A DNA stretch of 64,000 nucleotides from Escherichia phage vB_EcoM_I14.1, in sequence record PP892526.1; one strand, 5' to 3'. Position 1 is the stretch's first letter, and every line of letters starts with the position of its first letter. The notes under the pieces are model-generated. The model made no database searches and was not told where the DNA came from. It saw only the letters and a list, made by a program, of their open reading frames with translations. The position numbers were made by a program, and so were the translations under genes. Positions 2,862-62,955 of the stretch are shown one piece after another.

Positions 2862-2862
<1 letters not shown>
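2623..2862 (+). CDS. tail assembly chaperone frameshift extension (gpGT/E'-like)
   Basis: Lies in the -1 frame relative to 2222..2620; that frame is open from the slippery site (2581) through 2862. Confidence 0.45.
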
Positions 2863-8246
<5,384 letters not shown>

Positions 8247-10877: not shown

Positions 10878-12053
10878 ATGGCAGTAGGTGAAATTCAAAT
10901 TAGTGCCTTGCCACAAGCGGCCTTACCAGTTGATTTAAGTGATATCTTCCATCTCAAGCAAGGTGTTGAGGATAAAAGATGTACGCTTGAACAGTTGTTA
11001 GCACCTCACGCATCTCTGAGGAATAACCCTCATGGTGTAACTAAATCACAAGTTGGTCTTGATAATGTTATTAACTCTCTTCAATTAGTTGCAGCTAATA
11101 ACTTGTCAGATATTGTAAGTGTTGCTGAGGCAAGAGCAAATCTACAAATTATGTCGTCAGAGGAAGTGAATAACTTAATTCAGCAACATATTGACGACAA
11201 AAGTAACCCACACAATACAACGAAAGCACAGGTTGGTTTAAGTAATGTTCAGAACTGGACAACATCTAATCTGTACAATGAAGATGCTGATAAGTATGCT
11301 ACCGCGAAAGCAGTTAATAATTTATATAAAGCTATCCAAGCGTCATATCCAGTAGGGACTATTCATCTATCTGTTAACTCTGCTAACCCATCCACTTACT
11401 TGCTTTGTGGAGGTACTTGGGAGTTAGTTTCTAAAGGTAGAGCATTAGTTGGTTATGATACAGATTCTAGACCTGTTGGTTCAACGTTTGGTTCTCAGAC
11501 TGTAGCATTAACAAATAATAATTTACCAGCACATACTCACTCTATCTATCTAACAGGTGGTGGTCATACACACTCTGCAAGTGTATCTATCTCTAGTTTT
11601 GATTATGGTTCAAAAAGTACATCAACTTTTGATTACGGTACAAAAACGACTAATAGTGCTGGTGCTCACACTCACACGTTTAGTGGCACAACAAGTAATG
11701 CTGGTAACCACAACCATAGAGTCCCTATGAGGGGTAATGATAGGGGTGGCACAAACGCTATTACTGCATCTGCTGATGCTGGTGTTGGTAATGCTATGTA
11801 TACTGATTTAGCTGGTGCTCACACCCATAGCTTCTCAGGTACAACTGCATCATCTGGTGCTCATAGCCATACTGTCGCAATTGGTGCTCACAGCCACACT
11901 GTTAATATTGGTTCGCACAGTCATACAGGCACTGTTACTGTTTCTAGCTCTGAGCATACACACTCAGGGACATCTGGTTCTGTTGGTGGTGGTCAAGCTT
12001 TCAGTGTTGAGCAGCCATCTTTTGTAGTGTATGTGTGGCAGAGAACAGCTTAA
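10878..12053 (+). CDS. tail fibre protein with His-rich HxH repeat tip
   Basis: C-terminus carries repeated GAHTHSFSG / GAHSHTV / GSHSHTG motifs (HxH repeats as in T4-type fibre tips) and ends in WQRTA. Confidence 0.6.
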   Translation: MAVGEIQISALPQAALPVDLSDIFHLKQGVEDKRCTLEQLLAPHASLRNNPHGVTKSQVGLDNVINSLQLVAANNLSDIVSVAEARANLQIMSSEEVNNLIQQHIDDKSNPHNTTKAQVGLSNVQNWTTSNLYNEDADKYATAKAVNNLYKAIQASYPVGTIHLSVNSANPSTYLLCGGTWELVSKGRALVGYDTDSRPVGSTFGSQTVALTNNNLPAHTHSIYLTGGGHTHSASVSISSFDYGSKSTSTFDYGTKTTNSAGAHTHTFSGTTSNAGNHNHRVPMRGNDRGGTNAITASADAGVGNAMYTDLAGAHTHSFSGTTASSGAHSHTVAIGAHSHTVNIGSHSHTGTVTVSSSEHTHSGTSGSVGGGQAFSVEQPSFVVYVWQRTA

Positions 12054-12062
12054 TTTCTTTAC

Positions 12063-12086
12063 AGGGGCTATAAAGCCCCTTTTAAG
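12063..12086 (+). terminator. hairpin between the two fibre genes (attenuator or weak terminator)
   Basis: aggggct-ataa-agcccct followed by ttt. Confidence 0.35.
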
Positions 12087-12099
12087 AGGAAAATTCATA

Positions 12100-14637
12100 A
12101 TGGCAGATTACAAATTGAGTCAGTTAAACTCAATCGACACAATTCGTTCAGAAGACCTATTGCACATCAGAGTTAAGAAAAGACCTAAAATGTTGGGTGA
12201 CGAAGACCGTAGAATGACCTATCAAGACTTCTTAGCATCTTTTAAACTTGAAAGATTTGTTCAGATTGCTGGTAGTACTATGACAGGTGACTTAGGGATT
12301 GTTAAGTTACTTTATGGTGGTAAGGCAGTATTTGACCCAACAGGCTCTTCTGAGGTTACTATTGGGGATATTTTAAAGACTTTTAAAATTAATTCAAATG
12401 GGCTTAAACTCACTATTGCAGATGCCACAAGGTCGGCAACTGTTTATCATACTTTGAACAAACCAAGCCCTAATGAACTTGGCATGAGAACTAATGAAGA
12501 GAATGATGCAAGATATGCAAGGCTTGCTGTTACAAACACATTCTCTGGAACTCAGAACATTCAAGGTGATGCTAACTTACTTCGCCTTAGAAACCGAAAT
12601 GCAAACAATGCACAATACATTGAAGGTGTAAACCTAGATGGTTCAGCTAGATGGTGGGTTGGTATTGGTAGCAATGGTTCTGACGAAGTAAAACTGTACA
12701 ATAACAAATACAACTCAGTCTTGACTGTTGCAAGTAATATCTCTGTTAATAAATCTTTAGCAATCACTGGACAAGTTCAACCTTCAGATTTCTCTAACTT
12801 AGATGCTAGATACTTCACTCAGACAGTTGCTAATCAGAGATTTGCACAGTTAGCTGGCAATAATACTTTTACAGGTGCTAACACTTTCACTAGCCTTGTT
12901 GTTAAGAAGAATGCTAATGCTATTACTTTGCAGAATACTGATACAAGTACAGCACTTTACATTCTCGGTAAGAAGTCTGATGGAACAAATAAATGGTATG
13001 TTGGTACAGATTCTGACGAGACACGTCTGAACATTTATAACTACCTTACAGGTTCACAGGTTTCACTAGGTACTACTATTGGTATCAATAAGACTGTGCA
13101 AATCACTGGACAAGTTCAACCTTCGGATTGGGCTAATATCGATTCTAGATATATTCCGGCAGCAACATTAAGTACGATTGCAAGAACTAATGCTGCTAAT
13201 ACATTCTCTGCACAACAGGTTATCAACGCTGATGGTGAAGCTCTTGCGTTAAAAGCAAAAACTGCAACGTCATTATTTATTAGAGGTAAGGATGTTGATG
13301 GAACCAGCAAGTGGTATGTTGGTAATGGTGATGCCAGTGATATCTTAAACCTGTATAACTACAAGACAGGTAAAGGGCTTAACATTGGTTCAGTATTTGA
13401 AATGAATGCAACTTTAGCAATCACTGGACAAGTTCAACCTTCTGATTGGGCTAATATTGATGCAAGATACTTTACGCAAAGTGCTAGTGATGGTAGATAC
13501 CTGAGAGTCAGAAGTACTGGCTTCAATAATGGAAACGTTGAAAAGTGGGCTAAAATTGCTACTGTCGTTATGCCGCAATCCGCATCTACTGCGGTGATTG
13601 AAGTGTTTGGTGGGTCTGGTTTTAATGTTAACGCACCACACCAAGCAGGTAAGTGTGAGATTATTTTACGAACATCAAACAATAACCCAAAGGGTTTAAA
13701 TGTTGTAGCTTGGAGAACCGCAGAGAATACCATTGTCACAGATATTGGTTATGTTAACACATCTGGCGACACTTATGATATTTACTGTAGGGTCGGTACG
13801 TACCAAAATGGTACAACATCAAGAGTTCAATCTTCTAGCAATGCAAGTGTGCAGCTATTTGAAGTCCCACAAACGTTTGATGATGCCCCACAAGGTATTG
13901 TGAAGGGTACAATTGCAAAATACTACACAAGTTTGCAAAAGCCAACCCCTTCAGATATCGGTGCATATACTAAAGCTGAAACTGACCAGAAAATTGCAGA
14001 AGCAATCAGTGACTCTACAGACCTGAATAAAATCTATCCAGTCGGTATTGTGACGTGGTTTAACAGTAATGTTAACCCTAATACAGCACTTCCTGGTCTA
14101 ACTTGGACGTACCTGAACAATGGTGTTGGCAGAACTATTAGAATTGCAGCAGCAAATGGCTCAGATGTTGCTACAACTGGTGGTTCAGACTCTGTAACGT
14201 TATCTGTTGGTAACTTACCTTCACACACGCATAGTTTCTCTGCTACCACTTCATCATTTGATTATGGTACTAAGACTTCTAGCACAACTGGTAACCATAA
14301 CCACAACAGGGGGACTATGGAGATTACTGGTACAGTAGGTTACTTCAGAAGTGATTCTAGCAGCTTCTACACAGCAAGTGGTGCATTCACACTTGGTAGT
14401 TCAACTGCTTCTAAAGGTTTTACTGGTTCTAACTTCACTTATGGTATCCCTGCTAACTTCAATGCGTCAAGAACTTGGTCTGGTGTAACGAATACAACAG
14501 GTAACCACAGCCACACTGTTGGTATTGGTGCTCACAGCCACACAGTTAGCGGTAACACAGGTGGTACTGGTTCTGGTTCAGCATTTAGTGTTACTAACCA
14601 GTTCTACAAGTTAATGGCTTGGGTAAGAACTGCTTAA
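12100..14637 (+). CDS. long tail fibre protein (three internal tandem domains, HxH repeat tip)
   Basis: Start taken at ATG 12100 behind RBS aagagga (ORF track begins at 12031); three ~110-aa repeats each ending ITGQVQPSD(W/F)(A/S)N(I/L)D(A/S)RY; C-terminal GNHSHTVGIGAHSHTV and WVRTA. Confidence 0.65.
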   Translation: MADYKLSQLNSIDTIRSEDLLHIRVKKRPKMLGDEDRRMTYQDFLASFKLERFVQIAGSTMTGDLGIVKLLYGGKAVFDPTGSSEVTIGDILKTFKINSNGLKLTIADATRSATVYHTLNKPSPNELGMRTNEENDARYARLAVTNTFSGTQNIQGDANLLRLRNRNANNAQYIEGVNLDGSARWWVGIGSNGSDEVKLYNNKYNSVLTVASNISVNKSLAITGQVQPSDFSNLDARYFTQTVANQRFAQLAGNNTFTGANTFTSLVVKKNANAITLQNTDTSTALYILGKKSDGTNKWYVGTDSDETRLNIYNYLTGSQVSLGTTIGINKTVQITGQVQPSDWANIDSRYIPAATLSTIARTNAANTFSAQQVINADGEALALKAKTATSLFIRGKDVDGTSKWYVGNGDASDILNLYNYKTGKGLNIGSVFEMNATLAITGQVQPSDWANIDARYFTQSASDGRYLRVRSTGFNNGNVEKWAKIATVVMPQSASTAVIEVFGGSGFNVNAPHQAGKCEIILRTSNNNPKGLNVVAWRTAENTIVTDIGYVNTSGDTYDIYCRVGTYQNGTTSRVQSSSNASVQLFEVPQTFDDAPQGIVKGTIAKYYTSLQKPTPSDIGAYTKAETDQKIAEAISDSTDLNKIYPVGIVTWFNSNVNPNTALPGLTWTYLNNGVGRTIRIAAANGSDVATTGGSDSVTLSVGNLPSHTHSFSATTSSFDYGTKTSSTTGNHNHNRGTMEITGTVGYFRSDSSSFYTASGAFTLGSSTASKGFTGSNFTYGIPANFNASRTWSGVTNTTGNHSHTVGIGAHSHTVSGNTGGTGSGSAFSVTNQFYKLMAWVRTA

Positions 14638-14644
14638 TCACTTG

Positions 14645-18212: not shown

Positions 18213-18417
18213 CTTTCTTCTTCCGTTTGCGTGAAGTGTCAATCAATGAATCTATGTTTGTAGCTCTGACCTTTTCACGTTCATCGTTAAGATAATCATC
18301 AAGAGCCTTTTCAATCTGTGAATCATCTTGACAGATAACTGTAAAGACTGTAAAGCCGTCTATATCATCAATTATCTTACCATAACCGCTTCTGGGATGT
18401 AACTTTTTCAGAGCCAT
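18205..18417 (-). CDS. hypothetical protein
   Basis: 70-aa ORF. Confidence 0.25.
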   Translation of the reverse strand: MALKKLHPRSGYGKIIDDIDGFTVFTVICQDDSQIEKALDDYLNDEREKVRATNIDSLIDTSRKRKKKDE

Positions 18418-18418
18418 A

Positions 18419-18802
18419 TCAAATACCTGTGCAGCTTCTGTTTTCTAAGAAATACTCAACACCATACATAGCTTTTTGCATCAAATCTTCTTTAAACTGA
18501 ATACGATGATTAAGCATAGCCTGTACATCAATATCATCATGGTGCTTCTCTTTAATATTTGCAGATTGCAGGAAATACTCTGCAAGAACACGATACTGAT
18601 AGTCAGTTACCTTGTCAGTCATCTCTGTTAAAGATTCTTCAGAGATTGGTTTAAGTAACTCACCATTAGCCAAAGCAACACCTTTAACAATCTGGCAAGT
18701 ATCTTCTGGAACACCTGATAAGTCCACATTTGGAAGTTCTGTTGCATTGACTGGTAAATTCATTGCCATAACCATTGCAGCAGCTAATAAAATCTTTTTC
18801 AT
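18419..18802 (-). CDS. secreted/periplasmic protein
   Basis: N-terminal signal peptide MKKILLAAAMVMAMNLPVNA; first gene of leftward operon. Confidence 0.4.
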   Translation of the reverse strand: MKKILLAAAMVMAMNLPVNATELPNVDLSGVPEDTCQIVKGVALANGELLKPISEESLTEMTDKVTDYQYRVLAEYFLQSANIKEKHHDDIDVQAMLNHRIQFKEDLMQKAMYGVEYFLENRSCTGI

Positions 18803-18846
18803 AATGACCTCAAAGTTATATTAAATTTTGTATTACATTGAGTATA

Positions 18847-18892
18847 AAAATAAGCTATAACACCTGACTTGTCAACAGATTTTATAGCTTAT
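18847..18892 (-). promoter_or_regulatory. leftward promoter embedded in an 11-bp perfect inverted repeat (operator candidate)
   Basis: Minus strand TTGACA-N17-TATTTT; arms ataagctataa (18850-18860) and ttatagcttat (18882-18892) flank the -35. Confidence 0.4.
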
Positions 18893-18910
18893 TTGGCAGA
18901 TTTTTTATAA

Positions 18911-19450
18911 GGCTACTGCCATCCTTCCATACCTTACCACACCAAACCACACCATACCGAGCCACACCCTACCAGACCCTACCAAACCCGACCGAGCATC
19001 ACTTAAAAATCCTCTTAGAAGACTCTTAAGTGATGTAATCGAATTTTAATGTAGCTCCGATTAACTACCCATACCTCACCTTACTTAACCGTACCGCACA
19101 GAACCACACCAAACCTAACACCACTTCTCATCACCTTATTAAAAACCCTGTTTAAAGACCTTTTAAAAAGATGAGTCTCATTTTAATGTAGATGAGACTA
19201 ACTACCCGCACCGAACCTCACCTGACCTGACAGCACCCGACCTCACCGCGCCATACCATACCATACTTCACTTAAAAATCCTCTTAGAAGGCTCTTAAGT
19301 GATGTAATCGAATTTTTATGTAGCTCCGATTAACTACCCGCACTTTACCAAACCTCACCCTACCCTACCAGACCTTACCTAACCGCGCCGTACCTCATTA
19401 AAAGACCCTCTTAAAGACCTTTTAAAAAGGAGCCTCCGAAGAGGCTACCT
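18911..19450. repeat. tandem array of four ~110-160-bp composite repeats (G-poor CA-rich tract + A/T-rich palindrome + hairpin with conserved loop)
   Basis: Unit ends at 19070, 19207, 19339; units A and C share a ~70-bp near-identical block; unit B keeps loop ttttaatgtag and tail aactaccc with a different stem. Confidence 0.6.
19420..19448 (-). terminator. intrinsic terminator for leftward two-gene cassette
   Basis: Minus strand hairpin gcctc-ttcg-gaggc followed by tccttttt, just past the stop of 19458..19898. Confidence 0.5.
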
Positions 19451-19457
19451 AGTCAAC

Positions 19458-19898
19458 TTAGAAAGGTTTTCTACGTTGCTTATTAATGTTAGCTTTCATA
19501 GCAGCTAAATGGTTTTGCTGTTCAATCAGTCGTGAGCGTTCTTGATGGCTAAGTGCCATAGTGTTCACATTCTCAATCGCTTGAGTGGCTTGCTTTAAAG
19601 CTCGACCAATCTTGCCAGACATTTTACGTTTTGCAATAGTTGCTTGATGCTTAGGTTCAACCACACGATAACCAACACCCATTGAAGCAACCAGATAAAT
19701 CTTCTCTTCTTTAAGAAGCTTCTCAATAAACTTCTCAAGTCGGTTTAGACGTGTAAGCGCATAAGCCTTCATTTCATCTTCGTACTTAACAATGTCACCT
19801 TGATAAGTTGGCTTCACAATACCTAAGAATGTGTCCATCTCAGAATGTGATACAGTGTCACCGTAACTAAACTTTGCTGCTAATGCTTTTGTATTCAT
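19458..19898 (-). CDS. hypothetical protein (repeat-flanked cassette)
   Basis: 146-aa ORF followed by leftward intrinsic terminator. Confidence 0.4.
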   Translation of the reverse strand: MNTKALAAKFSYGDTVSHSEMDTFLGIVKPTYQGDIVKYEDEMKAYALTRLNRLEKFIEKLLKEEKIYLVASMGVGYRVVEPKHQATIAKRKMSGKIGRALKQATQAIENVNTMALSHQERSRLIEQQNHLAAMKANINKQRRKPF

Positions 19899-19900
19899 AA

Positions 19901-20506
<606 letters not shown>

Positions 20507-20574
20507 TTAGTTGATTGTTAAGTTGTTTGTAAAGAACCCTCAACAGAAGACTCTTTAGAAACTTGGTAGATTTT

Positions 20575-20700
20575 TAACGTGGCTACTACCATCCACCCAG
20601 ACTTTACCATACCTCACCAGACCATACCTCACCTGGCCGCGCCTTGCCTTGCCAAACATCACTTAAAAACCCTTTTAAAAGACTCTTAAGTGATGCTGGT
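20575..20700. repeat. fifth copy of the composite repeat (CA-rich tract + catcacttaaaaa...cttaagtgatg palindrome)
   Basis: Shares ggctactaccatcc, the CA-rich tract and the 10-bp-arm palindrome with units at 18911-19450. Confidence 0.55.
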
Positions 20701-20725
20701 GAGTACCCGTTGGTTTATGCTGCTC

Positions 20726-20753
20726 AGTATACTCACCAAATTTTCTATGTCAA
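20726..20753 (-). promoter_or_regulatory. leftward sigma70-like promoter for cassette 20503->19458
   Basis: Minus strand TTGACA-N16-TATACT. Confidence 0.45.
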
Positions 20754-20760
20754 CAACTTT

Positions 20761-21897
20761 TTATTCGTAGTCTCGAATAACGAGGCCAACAGGAAACTGT
20801 AAAGAACCCTTACGAGTCATCTTCTGGAACTGAACCGTTAAAGGCTTCCCAATAAACTCTTCAGGATGTTCAGCAAGATACTGTTTCTTCTCATGAGTAG
20901 TCTTCCATGAGACATCTACAAAGACGTTAGGAAGAGTCTCTACAACGAACTTGCCATGACCACGCTTATCAGTCTTTACACCAGTCACTTTAAATTCTTC
21001 AGTGTGCATCTTCTTGTGCTTAATCAAGAAGTACGAACGGTGACAACACTCATAGAAGGAGTCTTCAGAGATTGAACGGTACATTGCACCTTCAAACTTA
21101 GCTTCAACCCACTTATCATGAGCTTCATCAAACTCTTCCCAAGAATTTACACGACGAGACTTAACAGGAACAACTTTACAGCCATCTCTGAAGTCATTCA
21201 ATGGTGAAGTCTCAATGATATCTCTACGCTCAGGCCACGTCTTAGTGCTGTCACAGATGTCGTACCAGTAAAACTGGAGTAGATGTCGGTCTGGATTGTC
21301 AGCATTCTTAATCATAGACACAATATCTTCTAAGTCCCAACCATGAGCATAAATCTCACCATCAAAGTCTTCGACTTGTGGATGCAATTTAAGCAACAAA
21401 AGCAAATCTGGGATTAGTTCTGCTGGGACGTTGTAAACAGCATTCTCACGAGAATAAGCCGTGAAGCTAACTGAATCAGCATCTCTTGAAATTCTACAAC
21501 GTACACCATCAAGTTTTGGTTGAGCATCAGCAGGGAATATCAAATACTTTGCATGACTCACCTTTGCAGCATCATGAGCAAGCTGTACACCTACCTTCTC
21601 AGTATTCTGTGCAGACTCTTTTGTGTAAGCATAGCCTTTGCGGTCAATTTGCTTTTTATACTTAGCAGCAACTTCAAAGAGAGCTTGCTGTTCAGCGTTA
21701 CGCTCATTCTTTTTACCGATGTTTTTCGGTTCTGCTGTGTACTCTTCAAACATCATCTTGCCATTTTCTTTACCGTAGGTTGTAATAACTTTGTCGCCTA
21801 CAGCAACGCATGACCATACGTTGAAAGAGCCATCTTTATTTTGTTTGTACAGTATTGTCATTTTATTCCTCTGAGTGATACCAAGTGTTGCAAGCAT
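20761..21897 (-). CDS. ATP-dependent DNA ligase
   Basis: Nucleotidyltransferase motif I KLDGVR, motif III DGEIY, motif IV EGAMYR, motif V LIKHK. Confidence 0.8.
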   Translation of the reverse strand: MLATLGITQRNKMTILYKQNKDGSFNVWSCVAVGDKVITTYGKENGKMMFEEYTAEPKNIGKKNERNAEQQALFEVAAKYKKQIDRKGYAYTKESAQNTEKVGVQLAHDAAKVSHAKYLIFPADAQPKLDGVRCRISRDADSVSFTAYSRENAVYNVPAELIPDLLLLLKLHPQVEDFDGEIYAHGWDLEDIVSMIKNADNPDRHLLQFYWYDICDSTKTWPERRDIIETSPLNDFRDGCKVVPVKSRRVNSWEEFDEAHDKWVEAKFEGAMYRSISEDSFYECCHRSYFLIKHKKMHTEEFKVTGVKTDKRGHGKFVVETLPNVFVDVSWKTTHEKKQYLAEHPEEFIGKPLTVQFQKMTRKGSLQFPVGLVIRDYE

Positions 21898-56760: not shown

Positions 56761-56904
56761 ACAAGGCTACCACATCTGGAAATAAAAGTCAACAGAAAAA
56801 TTTGTAGCGGATTGAAAAATAATTCTTGATTATAGTTCTGTTTTGTGGTAGTCGCGTGCGCCCGTTTCATTACAGTTTTTGCAAAAATATTTTTAAAATT
56901 TTTC

Positions 56905-56993
56905 TTGACTCTCTGACTATGGTTATTTAATATTTGCATCAACGGGGGGCGATGACCTCCCAGCTAACTAACCTTAAACTAGGAGATTCAAAA
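56905..56993 (+). promoter_or_regulatory. early promoter plus conserved leader hairpin and RBS (cassette 1)
   Basis: TTGACT-N17-TAATAT, then aacggggggcgatgacctccc hairpin, then ccttaaactaggagattcaaaaATG. Confidence 0.55.
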
Positions 56994-57374
56994 ATGGCTT
57001 ATCGTGCACCTAAATTCATCAACAAAGACAACTTTCGCAACGTACTGGAGAAGGCACTTGATGAAAAATTTAACGGTAAAATAATTGTTGTTCATGCGTT
57101 CAATTTCAAGTATGATATCAACGGGAATAAAATCAACCATTACACGGCAACCATGTTAGATGGTACGCTATCAAGTGAAAAAGCCGTACTGAATGCACTG
57201 GCAGGACGTGGTAAAAACCTGATAAAATGCGATAAGAGACGTTATCAGGGCGGCGCATATGGTTACGATGATGCTGTTTACCATCTTGAAAATATGGGCT
57301 ATTCAGTGGAAAAAGCTGGAATATCTCAAATAATCGGCAGTGACGGCTATGTGACAATTTTCAAAATTAACTGA
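56994..57374 (+). CDS. early small protein, hypothetical
   Basis: ATG behind conserved ccttaaactaggagattcaaaaATG; promoter 56905-56933 upstream (ORF track 56934). Confidence 0.45.
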   Translation: MAYRAPKFINKDNFRNVLEKALDEKFNGKIIVVHAFNFKYDINGNKINHYTATMLDGTLSSEKAVLNALAGRGKNLIKCDKRRYQGGAYGYDDAVYHLENMGYSVEKAGISQIIGSDGYVTIFKIN

Positions 57375-57376
57375 TA

Positions 57377-57462
57377 AAGTACTTTACAAGGGGCTTATAG
57401 TTCGATAAAGTAAGCCCCAGATAAAGAGCTTTACCACTAAATCCTAAATTGGAGATTCTAAA
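57377..57462 (+). promoter_or_regulatory. intergenic stem-loop + RBS cassette (hairpin type)
   Basis: gtactttacaaggggcttatagttcgataaagtaagccccagataaagagcttta ... ggagattctaaaATG. Confidence 0.5.
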
Positions 57463-57720
57463 ATGGCTATTATCAAAAACGTTGTAATTACTGCAAAAAC
57501 TCGTGATGACGCTCGCATTATGGCTAAAAAGTTATGCGGGAAAGTGATTGACAACGGAAAAAAATCTGCTGTAAGATGGGGCGTGAAAGCTGATAAGCAA
57601 CTAACCTTAAAACGTAATTCAAGCAACCTTTTTAAAGGTGTGGAAACACTTGGTAAAGTGAACGTATTCACTAAGCAAGGTTATAAAATGCACTTATCAT
57701 TAACTGGTAAATTAATCTGA
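57463..57720 (+). CDS. early small basic protein, hypothetical
   Basis: Conserved hairpin-RBS cassette upstream; Lys/Arg-rich 85 aa. Confidence 0.45.
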   Translation: MAIIKNVVITAKTRDDARIMAKKLCGKVIDNGKKSAVRWGVKADKQLTLKRNSSNLFKGVETLGKVNVFTKQGYKMHLSLTGKLI

Positions 57721-57810
57721 TAAAGTACTTTACAAGGGGCTTAAAAGCTGATATCTTAAGCCCCAGATAAAGAGCTTTACTACATTAACCTTAAACTAGG
57801 AGATTCAAAA
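57721..57810 (+). promoter_or_regulatory. intergenic stem-loop + RBS cassette (hairpin type)
   Basis: Same framework; stem ggggcttaa...ttaagcccc with different loop. Confidence 0.5.
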
Positions 57811-58323
57811 ATGAAAACTGTAGACGCTACCTTTGAAGTTGTAAAAGAAAAATTTTCCATCATTTACGAAGCTGTTAACTGCTACGAAGCAAGCCATAGC
57901 CTTGATAATTGGAAATTTACAGATAATCATCAAGGTGGCGTGACTATTAAAAACCCCAACTATCGTTATAATGCTTTTAAATATGCAATCCCTTTACATT
58001 ACAGCCTTAAACAGCTTTCGAGTGACTATGCAAAACAAGGCCGGGAAAACCCTTCAAAAGAGGCTTATATCAGCTTACAAAGAGAACTAGAAAGGGATTT
58101 AGAGGCTTCAGCATATAATATTGCCGCGAAAGTTGTGGATGCAAACGGTAAAACGGTTTTAGAAAGTTTTTATACTGGTTACGCTTTTGATTGGGCATAC
58201 AGTGACGGCGAAGATTTAGAGGATAGACTAAAAGAGGAGGTGAGCAATTCAGGCGCAGAATCTGAAGTATTAGAACGCTTGGAAGCATTAAAAGATTCAG
58301 TGATGAATATCTTTAAGAACTAA
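57811..58323 (+). CDS. early protein, hypothetical
   Basis: Conserved hairpin-RBS cassette upstream. Confidence 0.45.
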   Translation: MKTVDATFEVVKEKFSIIYEAVNCYEASHSLDNWKFTDNHQGGVTIKNPNYRYNAFKYAIPLHYSLKQLSSDYAKQGRENPSKEAYISLQRELERDLEASAYNIAAKVVDANGKTVLESFYTGYAFDWAYSDGEDLEDRLKEEVSNSGAESEVLERLEALKDSVMNIFKN

Positions 58324-58412
58324 ATAGATTTCTTTACACGGGGCTATCAAGCTGATAAGATAGCCCCAGATAAAGAGCTTTATTAACTAACCTTAAACTA
58401 GGAGACTCAAAA
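58324..58412 (+). promoter_or_regulatory. intergenic stem-loop + RBS cassette (hairpin type)
   Basis: Stem ggggctatc...gatagcccc (compensatory change), then agataaagagcttta and RBS. Confidence 0.5.
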
Positions 58413-58709
58413 ATGAAATTATCAAATAAAGTTAGGGAAAATCTAAGCAAGTTACTCAACAAAATTGATTTTATCGAGACATCAAGGAATAGTCATGATG
58501 TTATGGAATGGTTACACGGAAAAATCAAAGGCCGTCGTGTAGTGATTTGCTTATGGAATAGTTGCAGGGAATATAAAAAACCTGTATTACAAGTCAATAT
58601 CTATGATGATACTTTTAAAAGCCATGTAAAGTCTAAAAGTGATTTATTAGAATCCTATGAGATAACTGTAAATGGCAAAGTATCACGTAAAGAGGAAACA
58701 CCATGTTAA
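58413..58709 (+). CDS. early small protein, hypothetical
   Basis: Conserved hairpin-RBS cassette upstream. Confidence 0.45.
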   Translation: MKLSNKVRENLSKLLNKIDFIETSRNSHDVMEWLHGKIKGRRVVICLWNSCREYKKPVLQVNIYDDTFKSHVKSKSDLLESYEITVNGKVSRKEETPC

Positions 58710-59035
58710 TGACTGGTATCACTGCAATCATTGCCATTTTCGCGCTATATAAGGCATATAAAGCCTATAATCTAGCAAATAAGGCAATCACACAGCAGGT
58801 TAGCAATAGCCTTGTAGAAAGCTTTCTAGGGCGTCTCAGTGATGAGCAAATAAAGCGGTTAGAAATGAGCTTCAGATTTCAATCGAGAACTTATCAAATC
58901 AGCGACATTTTCAAAGATGATTTTCAGCTTGTCGATGATTATAACTCCCTGATAAATGCTTTAAATATCAGTGACTTAAAAGACTATTACGCTGTAATTG
59001 TCCAAGAATTGAGCAAACGAAAAAATTTATCTTGA
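58703..59035 (+). CDS. early membrane-anchored protein, hypothetical
   Basis: N-terminal hydrophobic helix ITAIIAIFALY; overlaps previous stop. Confidence 0.4.
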   Translation: MLMTGITAIIAIFALYKAYKAYNLANKAITQQVSNSLVESFLGRLSDEQIKRLEMSFRFQSRTYQISDIFKDDFQLVDDYNSLINALNISDLKDYYAVIVQELSKRKNLS

Positions 59036-59126
59036 TTTTGGTTTTTAAAACAAGTAAATTACTAATCAACGGGGAGGGAATGACCTTCCCCCACTAAATA
59101 AAGTCCTTAAACTAGGAGATTCAAAA
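59032..59126 (+). promoter_or_regulatory. early promoter plus conserved leader hairpin and RBS
   Basis: TTGATT-N17-TAAATT, aatcaacggggagggaatgaccttccccc, ccttaaactaggagattcaaaaATG. Confidence 0.55.
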
Positions 59127-59399
59127 ATGTATACTACTAACAATGGTCGCACTTTAAACGTAACCCTGCGCCACTATGTGAACGGTGTAATGCACTTCGA
59201 GGATTTACAAGCTGAACAACATATACTAGATTGGCAACTTGCAGGACTCCAAAAAACTGCTACCGGATACGGGAAAAAGATTCCAACTAGCTGGAAAGTA
59301 TACTACGAAGGACGTTTGCGCAGAATTTATCAAGATGTATGCAGCAATAGCGCATCAAGTTACATCATGGTAAAAGGTGAAAAATTACACTTAGCATAA
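59127..59399 (+). CDS. early small protein, hypothetical
   Basis: Promoter-leader cassette upstream (59032-59126). Confidence 0.45.
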   Translation: MYTTNNGRTLNVTLRHYVNGVMHFEDLQAEQHILDWQLAGLQKTATGYGKKIPTSWKVYYEGRLRRIYQDVCSNSASSYIMVKGEKLHLA

Positions 59400-59484
59400 A
59401 GTACTTTACAAGGGGCTTATAGTTCGATAAAGTAAGCCCCAGATAAAGAGCTTTATCACTCAATCCTAAATTGGAGATTCTAAA
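59400..59484 (+). promoter_or_regulatory. intergenic stem-loop + RBS cassette (hairpin type)
   Basis: Near-identical to 57377-57462. Confidence 0.5.
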
Positions 59485-59889
59485 ATGGCTATTAATAATC
59501 GTGAGTTATCAATCTTAAAAGCACGTTTGACCGTTAACCGGATTAATGTTATTACATCATCAGCACCTGATGAGACATTGCACAACATTATCGGGAAGAT
59601 TCAAAGTGTTATCTTAGACGTTGAAAGCGTAAAAAACTCACTGGCTGACGTTGCAGCAGGTATCACGCTAGACGGTGCACAATATGAAATGGCTGACATG
59701 TTAGGCAAATCTAAGGTAATGAATAAAGAGCTTGATTTAAAAATGTTCCGCTTTGCCGTGAAAGTGTGGCTATCTGTCGAGTATGACGCAAATTTTGCAA
59801 TCGCTGACTTTTTCGCAACATGGTTGCAACGTAATTTAACAAATCATGATTTTCGTGATATCTGCGACGTAATTTACGCAGAACTTTAA
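59485..59889 (+). CDS. early protein, hypothetical
   Basis: Hairpin-RBS cassette upstream. Confidence 0.45.
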   Translation: MAINNRELSILKARLTVNRINVITSSAPDETLHNIIGKIQSVILDVESVKNSLADVAAGITLDGAQYEMADMLGKSKVMNKELDLKMFRFAVKVWLSVEYDANFAIADFFATWLQRNLTNHDFRDICDVIYAEL

Positions 59890-59898
59890 AAATTTCTC

Positions 59899-59992
59899 TT
59901 GATTTTGGTTTTTAAAACAAGTAAATTATTAATCAACGGGGAGGGAATGACCTTCCCCACTAAGTAAAGTCCTTAAACTAGGAGATTCAAAA
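59899..59992 (+). promoter_or_regulatory. early promoter plus conserved leader hairpin and RBS
   Basis: TTGATT-N17-TAAATT plus leader; ~95% identical to 59032-59126. Confidence 0.55.
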
Positions 59993-60196
59993 ATGGCTAT
60001 TATTAACGGCTTAAACATTGAAACTACTCACATCAAAGATATCAAAGTTGGTGATATAGTCCTTTTTCACGGCGTAGAAAAAACCGTCACTGAAAAGGAT
60101 ATCAAGGAGGATTCATTCATGGGCCGGACTCTCTTCGGTGATTCCTATTGCTTAGGTTACCTTGCAGTTTTAAAAGTTGTCAAAAATAACCGTTAA
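59993..60196 (+). CDS. early small protein, hypothetical
   Basis: Promoter-leader cassette upstream (59899-59992). Confidence 0.45.
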   Translation: MAIINGLNIETTHIKDIKVGDIVLFHGVEKTVTEKDIKEDSFMGRTLFGDSYCLGYLAVLKVVKNNR

Positions 60197-60282
60197 AGTA
60201 CTTTACAAGGGGCTTATAGTTCGATAAAGTAAGCCCCAGATAAAGAGCTTTACCACATTAATCCTAAACTGGAGATTCAAAA
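60197..60282 (+). promoter_or_regulatory. intergenic stem-loop + RBS cassette (hairpin type)
   Basis: Near-identical to 57377-57462. Confidence 0.5.
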
Positions 60283-60825
60283 ATGAAATGCTTTCACGGT
60301 ACTACTCAAGAAAACTTCGTCAACCTGATTAATAACGGTGATAAACCATCAGGCGCATGGAATTGTTCGGATATGGATGGCAATTTTTACGTTTATCCAG
60401 AAAATAAAATCTATGGCGACGATGAGGAAGAAATAATCTCTGAAGGCATTCAACAAGCTTTAGGTAATGCCACTATAACGGCAGCTTTTCAGATGAAAAC
60501 TCAAAACATTGTTATCTTGGAACTTGATATTCCAGAAGATGAGTTGAATGATGATTATTCTTGTGATAATATGTCGAGTGTGGCAAGTTTTACAGAGTAT
60601 TTTGATATAAGCTGGATTAAAAAGGTTTATATCACTGAATTTAATGCTATGTTTTCACCTTTTTGTCTTCCTTCACTGGATAACCCGAACTTAAACTATC
60701 TTGATGAGTCTCTGGAACTTCTCGCTAAAAGTGTTCAGCAATCGGACAGTATTCAGGTTTTTTGTGACATCATGGATACACTAACAGGAAACATTGCAGA
60801 AGAGGATTTGAAGAGTTTTTTCTAA
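60283..60825 (+). CDS. early acidic protein, hypothetical (N-terminal FHGT motif)
   Basis: Hairpin-RBS cassette upstream; FHGT at residues 4-7; acidic. Confidence 0.4.
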   Translation: MKCFHGTTQENFVNLINNGDKPSGAWNCSDMDGNFYVYPENKIYGDDEEEIISEGIQQALGNATITAAFQMKTQNIVILELDIPEDELNDDYSCDNMSSVASFTEYFDISWIKKVYITEFNAMFSPFCLPSLDNPNLNYLDESLELLAKSVQQSDSIQVFCDIMDTLTGNIAEEDLKSFF

Positions 60826-60851
60826 AAACCTATGCAATCACCTTATAAACA

Positions 60852-60878
60852 CTGATTAGCCCCTCACAGGGGCTTTTA
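60852..60878 (+). terminator. hairpin terminator candidate inside early array
   Basis: agcccctc-aca-ggggct followed by ttta. Confidence 0.4.
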
Positions 60879-60891
60879 GGAGGCTTTAATC

Positions 60892-61125
60892 ATGCTTACA
60901 ACCATTTACCTCATCCTTTCTATCTGTAATGGTCATTCGTGTGACTTTAAAGGGCTTGAAGAGTTTACAGGAAGTAAAGAAAATGCTATTCAAGTGTGCC
61001 AGATAGCAAGGCAAGACTATCCCGCCAGTGATGATATACAATGTTACTTTAAGACAGAAGATGAAGACGGTGTCTATTTTGACAGCGTAGACGGTCAATA
61101 TGAAATTATCATTGAAAAAGACTAG
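60892..61125 (+). CDS. early small protein with hydrophobic N-terminus
   Basis: RBS aggagg; terminator-like hairpin upstream. Confidence 0.35.
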   Translation: MLTTIYLILSICNGHSCDFKGLEEFTGSKENAIQVCQIARQDYPASDDIQCYFKTEDEDGVYFDSVDGQYEIIIEKD

Positions 61126-61214
61126 ACAAGCCTGATAAAAGTCTGTAAATTGTCAATCAACGGGAGGTAATAACCTCCCCACTAAGTAAAGTCCTTAAAC
61201 TAGGAGATTCAAAA
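61124..61214 (+). promoter_or_regulatory. early promoter (weaker -35) plus conserved leader hairpin and RBS
   Basis: TAGACA-N17-TAAATT, gtcaatcaacgggaggtaataacctcccc leader. Confidence 0.45.
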
Positions 61215-61556
61215 ATGGCTTATGTAACCGTAATTACCGACAAAGCTGGCTCATCTTGGTCAACTCAAGTAAGCGATAAGATGTCACCTATGAAGTGCCT
61301 AAAATACTTTGAGCAATGGAACAAAGGCGAGGATGTCAGCCCCTTTCAAGTGATGCAGATTATCCATACAGATAACGAAGGGAATAAAACTGTTTTGAAT
61401 AGTGAGTACTACGCAACCCGATTTGAAACGAGATGTAAAGCAATGAAGCTTTTGCGTGAGTCTGGTTATTCTCATATTGCCTCACTAATCTGGGATGACC
61501 TGCTAAAAAATCAGCGTATCAGCTATGTAAAACCTGAAAAAATATTCATCAGTTAA
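61215..61556 (+). CDS. early small protein, hypothetical
   Basis: Promoter-leader cassette upstream. Confidence 0.45.
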   Translation: MAYVTVITDKAGSSWSTQVSDKMSPMKCLKYFEQWNKGEDVSPFQVMQIIHTDNEGNKTVLNSEYYATRFETRCKAMKLLRESGYSHIASLIWDDLLKNQRISYVKPEKIFIS

Positions 61557-61685
61557 TCAACAACTTACAAAAAACTTTTAAAAAGATGTTGACAATCCCT
61601 CTTGACATTGGTAACTTTGTTCGAGGGGGTTTATCTAAAAGGGATTAACTTAAAAGATTCTTTATAGATAAACTTAAAAAATTGC

Positions 61686-61780
61686 TTGCAATCAACTATC
61701 AAAACAAGTAAATTACTAATCAACGGGAGGGATAACCCCCCCCCCACTAAATAAAGTCCTTAAACTAGGAGATTCAAAAA
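61686..61780 (+). promoter_or_regulatory. early promoter plus leader containing a C10 homopolymer
   Basis: TTGCAA-N17-TAAATT; leader gggagggataacccccccccc with C-run at 61736-61745. Confidence 0.5.
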
Positions 61781-62311
61781 ATGAACAAGTTCAAAGCTAT
61801 CAACTTCATTCGTTCAAATAGTGTTATGTCAAAGCCTGTTAAAGATACCTATGAATTTCGTTGCAATGGGGTGCATTTTGCAACCATTACCAAATCAGAA
61901 AACGGAGCTTATTACATCCATCGCCGTAATGTTGCAACCGTTGTTGTCTCTCACTTTATGCAAGCTGTCGCGGAACTTCTCCCGATGTTTTTAGGGCTTT
62001 ACTTGGATGAGTGTAAAAACGTTCACAATCACGTTAAAAACCTTTTAAACAGTTATAAAATGGCTTATGAACGTTCTATCAAGTCCTTAAACAAGTTTTA
62101 CAACGCACCTAAAAATACTGTATCAATGGCCTACGATGTAAATGGTGAGGCGGTGAGTCTCTTTGAAGTGGAAGAAATCAAGCTGCATGATTTACGCCCT
62201 AGCGGTGACTCTAAGACTCTCGGTGAAGGTTTAACGTTCAATATCAAGAACTTAGAGAAAACTTTAAAAGATATTGAAAAAGATATTGACGAGACAACCA
62301 AAAATCTGTAA
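61781..62311 (+). CDS. early protein, hypothetical
   Basis: Promoter-leader cassette upstream (61686-61780). Confidence 0.45.
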   Translation: MNKFKAINFIRSNSVMSKPVKDTYEFRCNGVHFATITKSENGAYYIHRRNVATVVVSHFMQAVAELLPMFLGLYLDECKNVHNHVKNLLNSYKMAYERSIKSLNKFYNAPKNTVSMAYDVNGEAVSLFEVEEIKLHDLRPSGDSKTLGEGLTFNIKNLEKTLKDIEKDIDETTKNL

Positions 62312-62376
62312 ATTGTCAATCAACGGGAGGGAATGACCTTCCCCACTAAGTAAAGTCCTAAACTGGAGTTATCAAG
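62296..62376 (+). promoter_or_regulatory. early promoter plus conserved leader hairpin and RBS
   Basis: TTGACG-N17-TAAATT, gtcaatcaacgggagggaatgaccttcccc. Confidence 0.5.
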
Positions 62377-62640
62377 ATGGAAAACGTAGAATTAACCGCA
62401 CTATTGCAGATTGCAACTGATAAAGAGGATGTAGCACTGTTCCACCGCATTGAAAGCGATTTGTTCAATGGTGAAATCATTAAAGAATCTTACGAAGTTG
62501 TCGGATTCAAAGATGGTAAATCATTTGGATTCTTTGACCTCGACAAAGGCAAAGCGGTTACAAAATATGATGTTTTATCTTGTGAGATTCTGACAAAATA
62601 CAACGAAAAAAGGCTTGCAACATACGACAACATGCAGTAA
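62377..62640 (+). CDS. early small protein, hypothetical
   Basis: Promoter-leader cassette upstream (variant RBS ctggagttatcaag). Confidence 0.4.
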   Translation: MENVELTALLQIATDKEDVALFHRIESDLFNGEIIKESYEVVGFKDGKSFGFFDLDKGKAVTKYDVLSCEILTKYNEKRLATYDNMQ

Positions 62641-62706
62641 ATTACTAATCAACGGGGAGGGATAACCTCCCCACTAAGTAAAGTCCTTAAACTAGGAGAT
62701 TCAAAA
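62641..62706 (+). promoter_or_regulatory. conserved leader hairpin and RBS (promoter -35 weak)
   Basis: taaattactaatcaacggggagggataacctcccc ... ccttaaactaggagattcaaaaATG. Confidence 0.45.
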
Positions 62707-62955
62707 ATGGCAACTATCCGCGCAACTGTCAATGCTTATGGCTGTTATACTCTGGACGTTAAATTTGATATTGGTGGAACTGATGAGTGTTTTTCATTAG
62801 TGAAGACAGTTATCAAGCAAGTTATCCCAGATTATAACCCTACTGATGACTTCTGGAAAGATGCTGTAAAAGAGGCATTAAACGACGAGCATCACTATCA
62901 TTACTGGGGTGACTTGATTATCTCACTGTACTACAATAAACAAGGTTACAACTAA
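62707..62955 (+). CDS. early small protein, hypothetical
   Basis: Leader cassette upstream; last ORF before strong terminator. Confidence 0.45.
   Translation: MATIRATVNAYGCYTLDVKFDIGGTDECFSLVKTVIKQVIPDYNPTDDFWKDAVKEALNDEHHYHYWGDLIISLYYNKQGYN

Follow-up and report, generated by a model that had tools for sequence, protein, structure and literature searches.

A repeat element in the vipr leader of Escherichia phage vB_EcoM_I14.1 and its probable identity as a VIPR guide RNA gene

Layout of the locus and its repeat tracts

The window considered here, meaning the whole analysed stretch of 64,000 nucleotides from Escherichia phage vB_EcoM_I14.1 (sequence record PP892526.1), was 100 % identical (megablast) to Escherichia phage vB_EcoM_D4 (PP886228.1), a Felixounavirus, and had ~260 related records. 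The repeat element under study lies in a leftward-transcribed block that comprises thyA, DHFR, an HTH regulator, DNA ligase and DNA polymerase. Directly past the ligase stop codon at 20761 begins a sigma-70-type promoter, TTGACA-N16-TATACT (minus strand, 20753..20726), which had already been pointed out in the initial annotation and which scored 11/12, the top value in 18300-21000. It drives the element, the gene vipr (minus strand, 19901..20488), coding for a 195-aa RAMP (Cas7-like) protein, and the accessory gene vap1 (minus strand, 19458..19898, 146 aa). The vap1 product was identical at 145 of 146 positions to that of the gene following vipr in phage SUSP1; it displayed no Pfam family and matched phrog_5926, of unknown function (Pfam, PHROGs). 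A sequence scan placed an intrinsic terminator, AGCCTCTTCGGAGGCT + CCTTTTT, after vap (minus strand, 19431..19446), and its U-run doubles as the 5' arm of the next repeat hairpin downstream, that of vrRNA2. No data for these intergenic regions were found in the PhageMaP paper on Bas63.

The element is thus physically part of the 5' leader of the vipr-vap transcript, between the promoter and gene 19901-20488, as had been proposed. This leader is longer than the ~170 nt initially given, measuring ~230 nt if it is taken to end at the annotated ATG (20488) and ~215 nt with the GTG at 20503. A perfect 9-nt inverted repeat, TGGTGAGTA / TACTCACCA at 20697-20705 / 20730-20738, pairs the -10 region of the promoter with the part of the leader that immediately precedes the 5' hairpin, and could form only in RNA reading through from the ligase gene.

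The element had been described as the fifth copy of a composite repeat, and a phase-aware scan of the 64 kb returned exactly five period-5 tracts, whose ACC is always on the + strand, and none elsewhere (18906-19020, 19058-19142, 19190-19284, 19322-19421 and 20581-20660). They were confined to two intergenic regions, four of them in 18.9-19.4 kb and the remaining tract at 20.58-20.66 kb. The minus strand, with its GGT... reading, was rightly taken as the functional one, and the RNA string quoted for it, ggtgaggtatggtctggtgaggtatggt, was found there at 20606-20633. The five copies (A to E) are less alike than had been announced. The palindrome catcacttaaaaa...cttaagtgatg does occupy 20657-20695, but its catcactt type was encountered only in copies A, C and E, copies B and D displaying the covarying variant ccttttaaaagg...ttttaatgagg instead. 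Similarly, the box ggctact[g/a]ccatcc, attributed to all copies, is present only in copies A and E. The sequence ggctactaccatcc lies at 20581-20594 and has its sole other near-match in the 64 kb at 18911-18924 (two matches versus 0.22 expected by chance). The left end of the element had been drawn too short, since the conserved 3' tail reaches ~20557, or 20525 if a second hairpin is included.

The leader copy, designated vrRNA1, was parsed at period five into a tract of 12 YNNGG units (minus strand, 20597..20656; NNACC on the + strand). Eleven units are canonical and a single one, TAAAG, is not. In minus-strand order they read TTTGG CAAGG CAAGG CGCGG CCAGG TGAGG TATGG TCTGG TGAGG TATGG TAAAG TCTGG, which corresponds to the NN code TT AA AA GC CA GA AT CT GA AT AA CT. 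The GenBank feature CDS0073, a 34-aa 'hypothetical protein' (minus strand, 20555-20659), lies wholly within vrRNA1 and is most likely a spurious gene call.

The four sister copies, all on the minus strand, share this organization. vrRNA2 (19304..19430) displays a P2-type hairpin (19393-19430), 12 units (19338-19397) and a pseudoknot tail down to ~19304. vrRNA3 (19172..19304) displays a P1 hairpin (19266-19304), 12 units (19206-19265) and a pseudoknot tail formed by GTAG/CTAC and GTCTCAT/ATGAGAC. vrRNA4 (19036..19177) consists of a P2-type hairpin (~19127-19177), ten units (19069-19118), eight of them canonical, and a pseudoknot tail. vrRNA5 (18848..19035) has a P1 hairpin (18997-19035) and 14 units (18927-18996), its tail (stem S1, GGCAG/CTGCC) being followed by an AT-rich terminator-like hairpin (18848-18894).

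Vipr and the identity of the tracts

The product of vipr was identical at 192 of 195 positions to PDB 36pp_D, 'SUSP1 Vipr protein' (E = 2e-128), and the profile of the family matched one PDB entry, again 36pp (E = 4.6e-80). Its AF2 model (pLDDT 95.8) found its best Foldseek matches in Csm3/Cas7 of type III and type VII CRISPR complexes. Residues H17 and D177, which contact RNA at G1, are kept. Searches of Pfam and PHROGs gave no Pfam family and only a PHROG of unknown function.

Vipr homologues numbered at least 519, and the family displays conserved motifs. The pattern (ACCNN)6ACC was present in more than 120 contigs of IMG/VR; with 21 specified bases, its chance expectation is estimated to be near zero. 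Many of these contigs contained several tracts with varied NN, and hence not simple microsatellites, and 55 loci were sequence-diverse. In 32 of the 55, the tract was adjoined by a Vipr homologue, the family of 32 flanking proteins delineated by all-against-all BLAST including the window ORF 19901-20503. The flanking gene, of ~160-210 aa, was almost always on the strand opposite to ACC, and GGY was on its coding strand in nearly all loci with a clear flanking gene.

Unrelated IMG/VR contigs (L003-L122) displayed arrays of up to 18 GGYNN tracts adjoining Vipr homologues, for example at L100 3233-4392, L022 2217-3404 and L012 4602-5047. The punctuation between these tracts varied, being 'aactgcc', 'cattagcc' or a 4-nt 'tgcc' slip. 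Two more small protein families (~150-175 aa) recurred near the arrays and are probably vap genes.

Conservation within the pentamer was uneven. Among 386 units, drawn from 40 unique tracts in 11 Felix-like sources, the GGY positions displayed entropies of 0.74, 0.18 and 0.46 bits, versus 1.95 and 1.94 bits for the NN positions, which are nearly random, all 16 dinucleotides being represented. Several early ideas, namely a TRAP-like ring (the first lead), origin iterons or an R-loop primer, a G-quadruplex/i-motif, a Rho site and a primase-site array, were dropped since the tract is strictly tied to a RAMP protein and this protein matches 36pp. A tract acting through DNA-level structure (origin iterons, R-loop primer, G-quadruplex/i-motif) or as a Rho-utilisation site would agree with a G-rich transcript after a strong promoter, with the replication-gene block between ligase and DNA polymerase, and with a GG-N3 spacing from which two-tetrad quadruplexes might form. 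Such an explanation is nevertheless extremely improbable: it leaves aside the conserved third base (Y), the length of 9-16 units and the structured tails, and accounts neither for the strict linkage to RAMP genes in unrelated phages nor for the matches to satellites under a skip of one base, presented below.

VIPR systems (Viral Interference Programmable Repeat) were described in two preprints of April-June 2026 as CRISPR-like systems whose small Cas7-like protein relies on reading pentamer repeats (GGY/NN) to find and silence DNA (bioRxiv 10.64898/2026.04.26.720920, 10.64898/2026.04.26.720927). Each of their guides, the vrRNAs, combines 9-16 YNNGG repeats with a downstream tail of ~40 nt, which is invariant and contains a pseudoknot. 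Each repeat is held by one Vipr protomer, which sequesters GGY and presents NN; the latter pairs with double-stranded DNA, one target base being skipped per unit (NNx), and transcription is repressed (10.64898/2026.04.26.720920, 10.64898/2026.04.26.720927). In SUSP1, four transcripts of ~100 nt surround vipr, one upstream (vrRNA1) and three downstream, and they co-purify with Vipr (10.64898/2026.04.26.720920). By experiment, SUSP1 vrRNA1 acts in trans as a guide, directing both DNA binding and the silencing of transcription, and a vrRNA of this phage works in trans from a plasmid. An E. coli satellite is the element on which natural targets in the SUSP1 clade converge (10.64898/2026.04.26.720920, 10.64898/2026.04.26.720927). 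Cryo-EM of SUSP1 vrRNA1 revealed 12 Vipr protomers and a 3' pseudoknot cap (10.64898/2026.04.26.720927).

The locus of the window phage closely resembles that of SUSP1. Both display the order ligase, promoter, vrRNA1, vipr, vap1, terminator and vrRNA array; Vipr and vap1 are 98.5 % and 99 % identical, respectively; promoter, leader, 5' hairpin stem, tail (100 %) and ribosome-binding site are identical; vrRNA1 has 12 units and the same position in both; and E. coli satellites are the predicted targets of both. Between a point 13 nt ahead of the -35 box and the vipr start codon, the window phage, SUSP1 and nataliec are identical, promoter included, except at four hairpin positions (loop and adjacent stem) and in the tract, where almost all differences are in NN. 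The Felix O1 form of the promoter is TTGACA-16-TATGCT. The two phages differ in the NN code, which is AT AA GT TC AA GC GG AA TA TT CT GT in SUSP1, in the number of downstream vrRNAs (three in SUSP1 versus four in the window phage), and in that RNA activity was measured in SUSP1, whereas the window phage is known from its sequence.

With the Cas7/Csm3 filament on crRNA of Class 1 CRISPR, VIPR shares the RAMP fold, a thumb by which guide bases are flipped with a constant period, a single protomer for each guide repeat, a structured conserved handle at one end and a programmable variable part. The period is however six nt with one base flipped in Class 1 CRISPR, versus five nt with three hidden and two read in VIPR, which reads its target with gaps (NNx) and is encoded here by a lytic phage. 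VIPR of the present type also differs by having no repeat-spacer array, Cas1/Cas2, PAM or nuclease, and neither a CRISPR-Cas array with unique contiguous spacers nor further cas-like genes were found in the neighbourhood of the locus. The likeness to TRAP and the Bacillus trp leader consists in a protein oligomer and a conserved triplet every ~5 nt of a 5' leader RNA. There, 11 GAG/UAG triplets with 2-3-nt spacers devoid of information serve a closed 11-mer ring and cis attenuation; in VIPR, by contrast, the 'spacers' carry information, the RNA is trans-acting with DNA as its target, and the proteins are not homologous.

The repeat is therefore almost certainly the guide RNA gene nearest the promoter in a type II VIPR locus, vrRNA1, and the first of five guide RNAs of the window phage. 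Nothing in the sequence conflicts with its being a guide RNA, and the orientation of the promoter agrees with transcription in the GGY sense. Transferring the SUSP1 results, vrRNA1 would be expressed and processed, and would silence its target, as its SUSP1 counterpart does. Since a published phage has a nearly identical locus, and both the VIPR system and the SUSP1 clade are already described, the finding adds no new kind of system. Beyond the preprints stand the RNA-level 5' hairpin, the guide set of the window phage with its integrase targets, and an orphan vrRNA in vipr-less relatives. The class of element is very unusual, guide RNA information being carried by two of every five bases, and it had been singled out from raw sequence independently of the preprints.

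Structured ends of the vrRNAs

The palindrome of vrRNA1 (minus strand, 20657..20695) is a 39-nt hairpin with 19-nt arms, one nt between them and a stem of 18-19 bp, which directly abuts the first unit. A hairpin of ~39 nt precedes every vrRNA in 13 phages and ends exactly at the first unit. It exists in two covarying versions, P1 (catcacttaag...aagtgatg) and P2 (ccttttaaaagg...ttttaatgagg). Over 26 copies from these 13 phages, 95.5 % of cells paired in the vrRNA sense, a level reached by none of 500 shuffles, and six pairs were altered on both sides. The 23 distinct copies displayed 300 Watson-Crick pairs, 86 G.U pairs and 24 mismatches in the vrRNA sense, versus 300, one and 109 in the opposite sense. 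Since sites that form G.U in the vrRNA sense are mismatched in the other, pairing appears to be selected in RNA of the vrRNA strand and not in DNA.

These figures bear on whether the palindrome could instead be a DNA-level internal promoter for each vrRNA (TTAAGA-N17-TTAAGT or TTAAAA-N17-TTTAAT) without any RNA hairpin. The hexamers are weakly -35/-10-like, have a spacing of 17 nt and would start transcription at the first repeat unit, and the downstream vrRNAs, which follow a terminator, need to be expressed in some way. The -10 box of these hexamers, however, lacks the conserved A at position 2, and the promoter scan did not call them; moreover, sites other than Watson-Crick form G.U when read in the vrRNA sense but A.C when read in the opposite one (86 versus 1), while the six pairs covarying between P1 and P2 point to selection for RNA pairing. 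Internal promoters are accordingly regarded as unlikely.

An RNA hairpin ahead of every vrRNA offers a lead on guide maturation. Mature guides are reported to be under 100 nt, whereas hairpin, tract and tail together make ~140 nt, so that the hairpin must be removed, at least from vrRNA1; the argument covers this vrRNA, which stands downstream of the sigma-70-type promoter. Neither VIPR preprint (10.64898/2026.04.26.720920, 10.64898/2026.04.26.720927) mentions the hairpin, a processing step or an RNase. From its sequence, the hairpin is probably a processing or boundary signal, RNase III being the simplest candidate enzyme for a stem of ~18 bp. A fuller proposal is put forward tentatively, namely that cutting by a host dsRNA-specific RNase (most simply RNase III) might set the 5' end and the filament length. 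As vrRNA1 sits in the vipr leader, the same cut would part the guide from the vipr-vap message, which could couple maturation to Vipr synthesis and possibly entail autoregulation.

In Shigella phage vB_SflM_004 (L134, ~720-860) and in Moogle (L135, ~690-830), the loop of one 5' hairpin contains an insert (caccacttaagagtctttaaattatattcgaaagagta...ctcatagggtttttaagtgttg).

Tails were of distinct types. Internal tails form an H-type pseudoknot, made of GTAG/CTAC plus either GTCTCAG/TGAGAC or TAATCGG/TCGATTA, in which 100 % of cells paired over nine variants, with three compensatory pairs in stem 2. The tail of vrRNA1 (minus strand, 20525..20596) contains stem S1, GGTAG at 20586-20590 with CTACC at 20565-20569, followed by a hairpin (20552-20562 / 20525-20535). 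S1 is common to vrRNA1-type and last-vrRNA-type tails, changing from GGTAG/CTACC to GGCAG/CTGCC and, in satellites, to GTCG/CGAC, with two compensatory pairs over 11 variants. Of the pseudoknot stems, S1 alone was assigned from sequence in the vrRNA1-type tail.

Satellite targets and vipr-less relatives

Blastn with the locus uncovered vrRNA-like stretches of ~90 nt in 61 E. coli chromosomes. The satellites concerned, ~12 kb in length, have genes for a large serine recombinase, a tape-measure protein and a Dit-like baseplate protein. Their integration sites are yecE, wrbA/ymdF and the vicinity of tonB (tonB/yciI). Six such loci in E. coli chromosomes (L128-L133; for instance L130 17683-29494 and L132 6199-16900) were retained. 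The yecE and wrbA/ymdF satellites scanned contained one vrRNA each, with a Felix-like tail, and no satellite had an annotated vipr gene. Two satellite proteins have counterparts in the window: the Dit-like protein shares 77 % identity with ORF 5090-5887, and the tape-measure protein, aligned over its full length, shares 29 % with ORF 2862-5090. This kinship fits a satellite exploiting Felix-like helper phages.

The five guide codes were scanned under the skip-1 rule against the six satellite loci (173 kb). The code of vrRNA1 matched at 22 of 24 positions on the coding strand of the large serine recombinase gene of tonB-site satellites (L132 16053-16087 and L133 15956-15990); this best match is imperfect and was obtained among six satellite loci, so that a better or another natural target may exist. 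The site is in frame, covering codons 272-283, and the skipped base is the wobble base, as 16900 - 16087 = 813 = 3 x 271. The sequence predicted to be recognised by Vipr and vrRNA1 of the window phage is TTCAATAAAGCTCAAGAAATCCTCGATAAAAATCG. Three of the four downstream guides matched the same satellite family: vrRNA2 an unannotated stretch upstream of a satellite gene (21/24, L133 10914-10948), vrRNA3 the recombinase gene of the wrbA-site satellite (22/24, L131 18588-18622) and vrRNA5 the large recombinase gene of the yecE-site satellite (23/28, L130 28305-28345). vrRNA4 displayed no significant target in the six loci scanned. At least vrRNA1, vrRNA3 and vrRNA5 hence match large serine recombinases of three satellite variants (tonB, wrbA and yecE), which makes a concrete and testable case of phage versus satellite.

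The observed scores of vrRNA1, vrRNA2, vrRNA3 and vrRNA5 were reached by none of 200 order-shuffled guides, and skips of zero, two or three nt gave scores at background, the best for vrRNA1 being 17/24. No self-target of at least 80 % was found within the window. Exact-pattern scans of IMG/VR gave no hit for the vrRNA5 target and two chance-level hits for that of vrRNA1 (18/24 with flanks), in keeping with targets residing in E. coli chromosomes and not in viral contigs. Because the NN code matches recombinase codons 272-283 in a satellite with related tail genes, the window phage most likely uses vrRNA1 to silence the integrase of a parasite.

The initial annotation had assigned the repeat a cis-regulatory role, for which support was not obtained. 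A cis-acting leader of genes 20488->19458 (attenuator, riboswitch-like element or protein-binding operator) would explain why the element stands between the promoter and the vipr start codon and why the vrRNA1 leader folds into stable hairpins (z = -2.6); in principle, Vipr bound to its own leader could also exert feedback on the stability of the vipr mRNA or on its translation. Against this, four more such elements lie past the operon terminator with no gene there to control; GGY is kept and NN hypervariable between otherwise identical phages; the neighbouring gene encodes Vipr; the orthologous RNA in SUSP1 guides the protein to DNA in trans, and works from a plasmid; and the variable NN behave as guide content, matching a satellite integrase gene at 22 of 24 positions. 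Rfam 15 contributed no family, its only match in 18700-20800 being at chance level and inside vap (E = 0.71, 17 bits versus a threshold of 100). A leader acting in cis is therefore judged quite improbable as the explanation of the repeat, and the features are those of a trans-acting guide RNA. An extra cis effect on vipr, through loading of Vipr on its own leader or through a cleavage separating guide and message, is possible beside it.

As a guide RNA gene, the element would work as follows. Leftward transcription from the TTGACA-16-TATACT promoter would yield the 39-nt hairpin, twelve YNNGG repeats, the structured 3' tail, vipr and vap, and the transcript would be trimmed to an RNA of ~100 nt made of tract and tail. 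Each repeat would then be bound by one Vipr protomer, hiding the GGY bases and displaying NN. The resulting filament would scan double-stranded DNA, skipping one base per NN (NNx), and block transcription at its site; the NN code of vrRNA1 is predicted to pair with codons 272-283 of the large serine recombinase of the satellite next to tonB.

Felix O1 (L123, AF320576.1 57609-57938) and about half of Felixounavirus records are without vipr and vap. This type keeps the promoter and the 5' hairpin, together with a single degenerate GGYNN tract, several units of which are broken, and a last-vrRNA-type tail, the comparable regions of the window being 18800-18900 and 20560-20780. The first and the last vrRNA seem to have recombined, so that the cassette was lost and an orphan guide remained; in Felix O1 and these relatives, vipr is gone and a decaying solo guide is kept.

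Other repeats were encountered elsewhere in the window. In 56900-62750, repeated cassettes of 80-100 nt precede many small + strand ORFs and combine a TTTACA-like box, a GC-rich hairpin (GGGGCTTA...TAAGCCCC or GGGGAGGG...CCTTCCCC; repeat families D1, D2, D4 and D9) and a near-identical RBS, TAAACTAGGAGATTCAAAAATG. They resemble the promoter-stem-loop cassettes of T4-type early regions. Within the tail-fibre genes (11600-14640), the coding sequence contains short repeats rich in His (GAHSHT-like), and three internal repeats recur at intervals of ~320-340 nt (families D8, D10, D11, D13 and D15).
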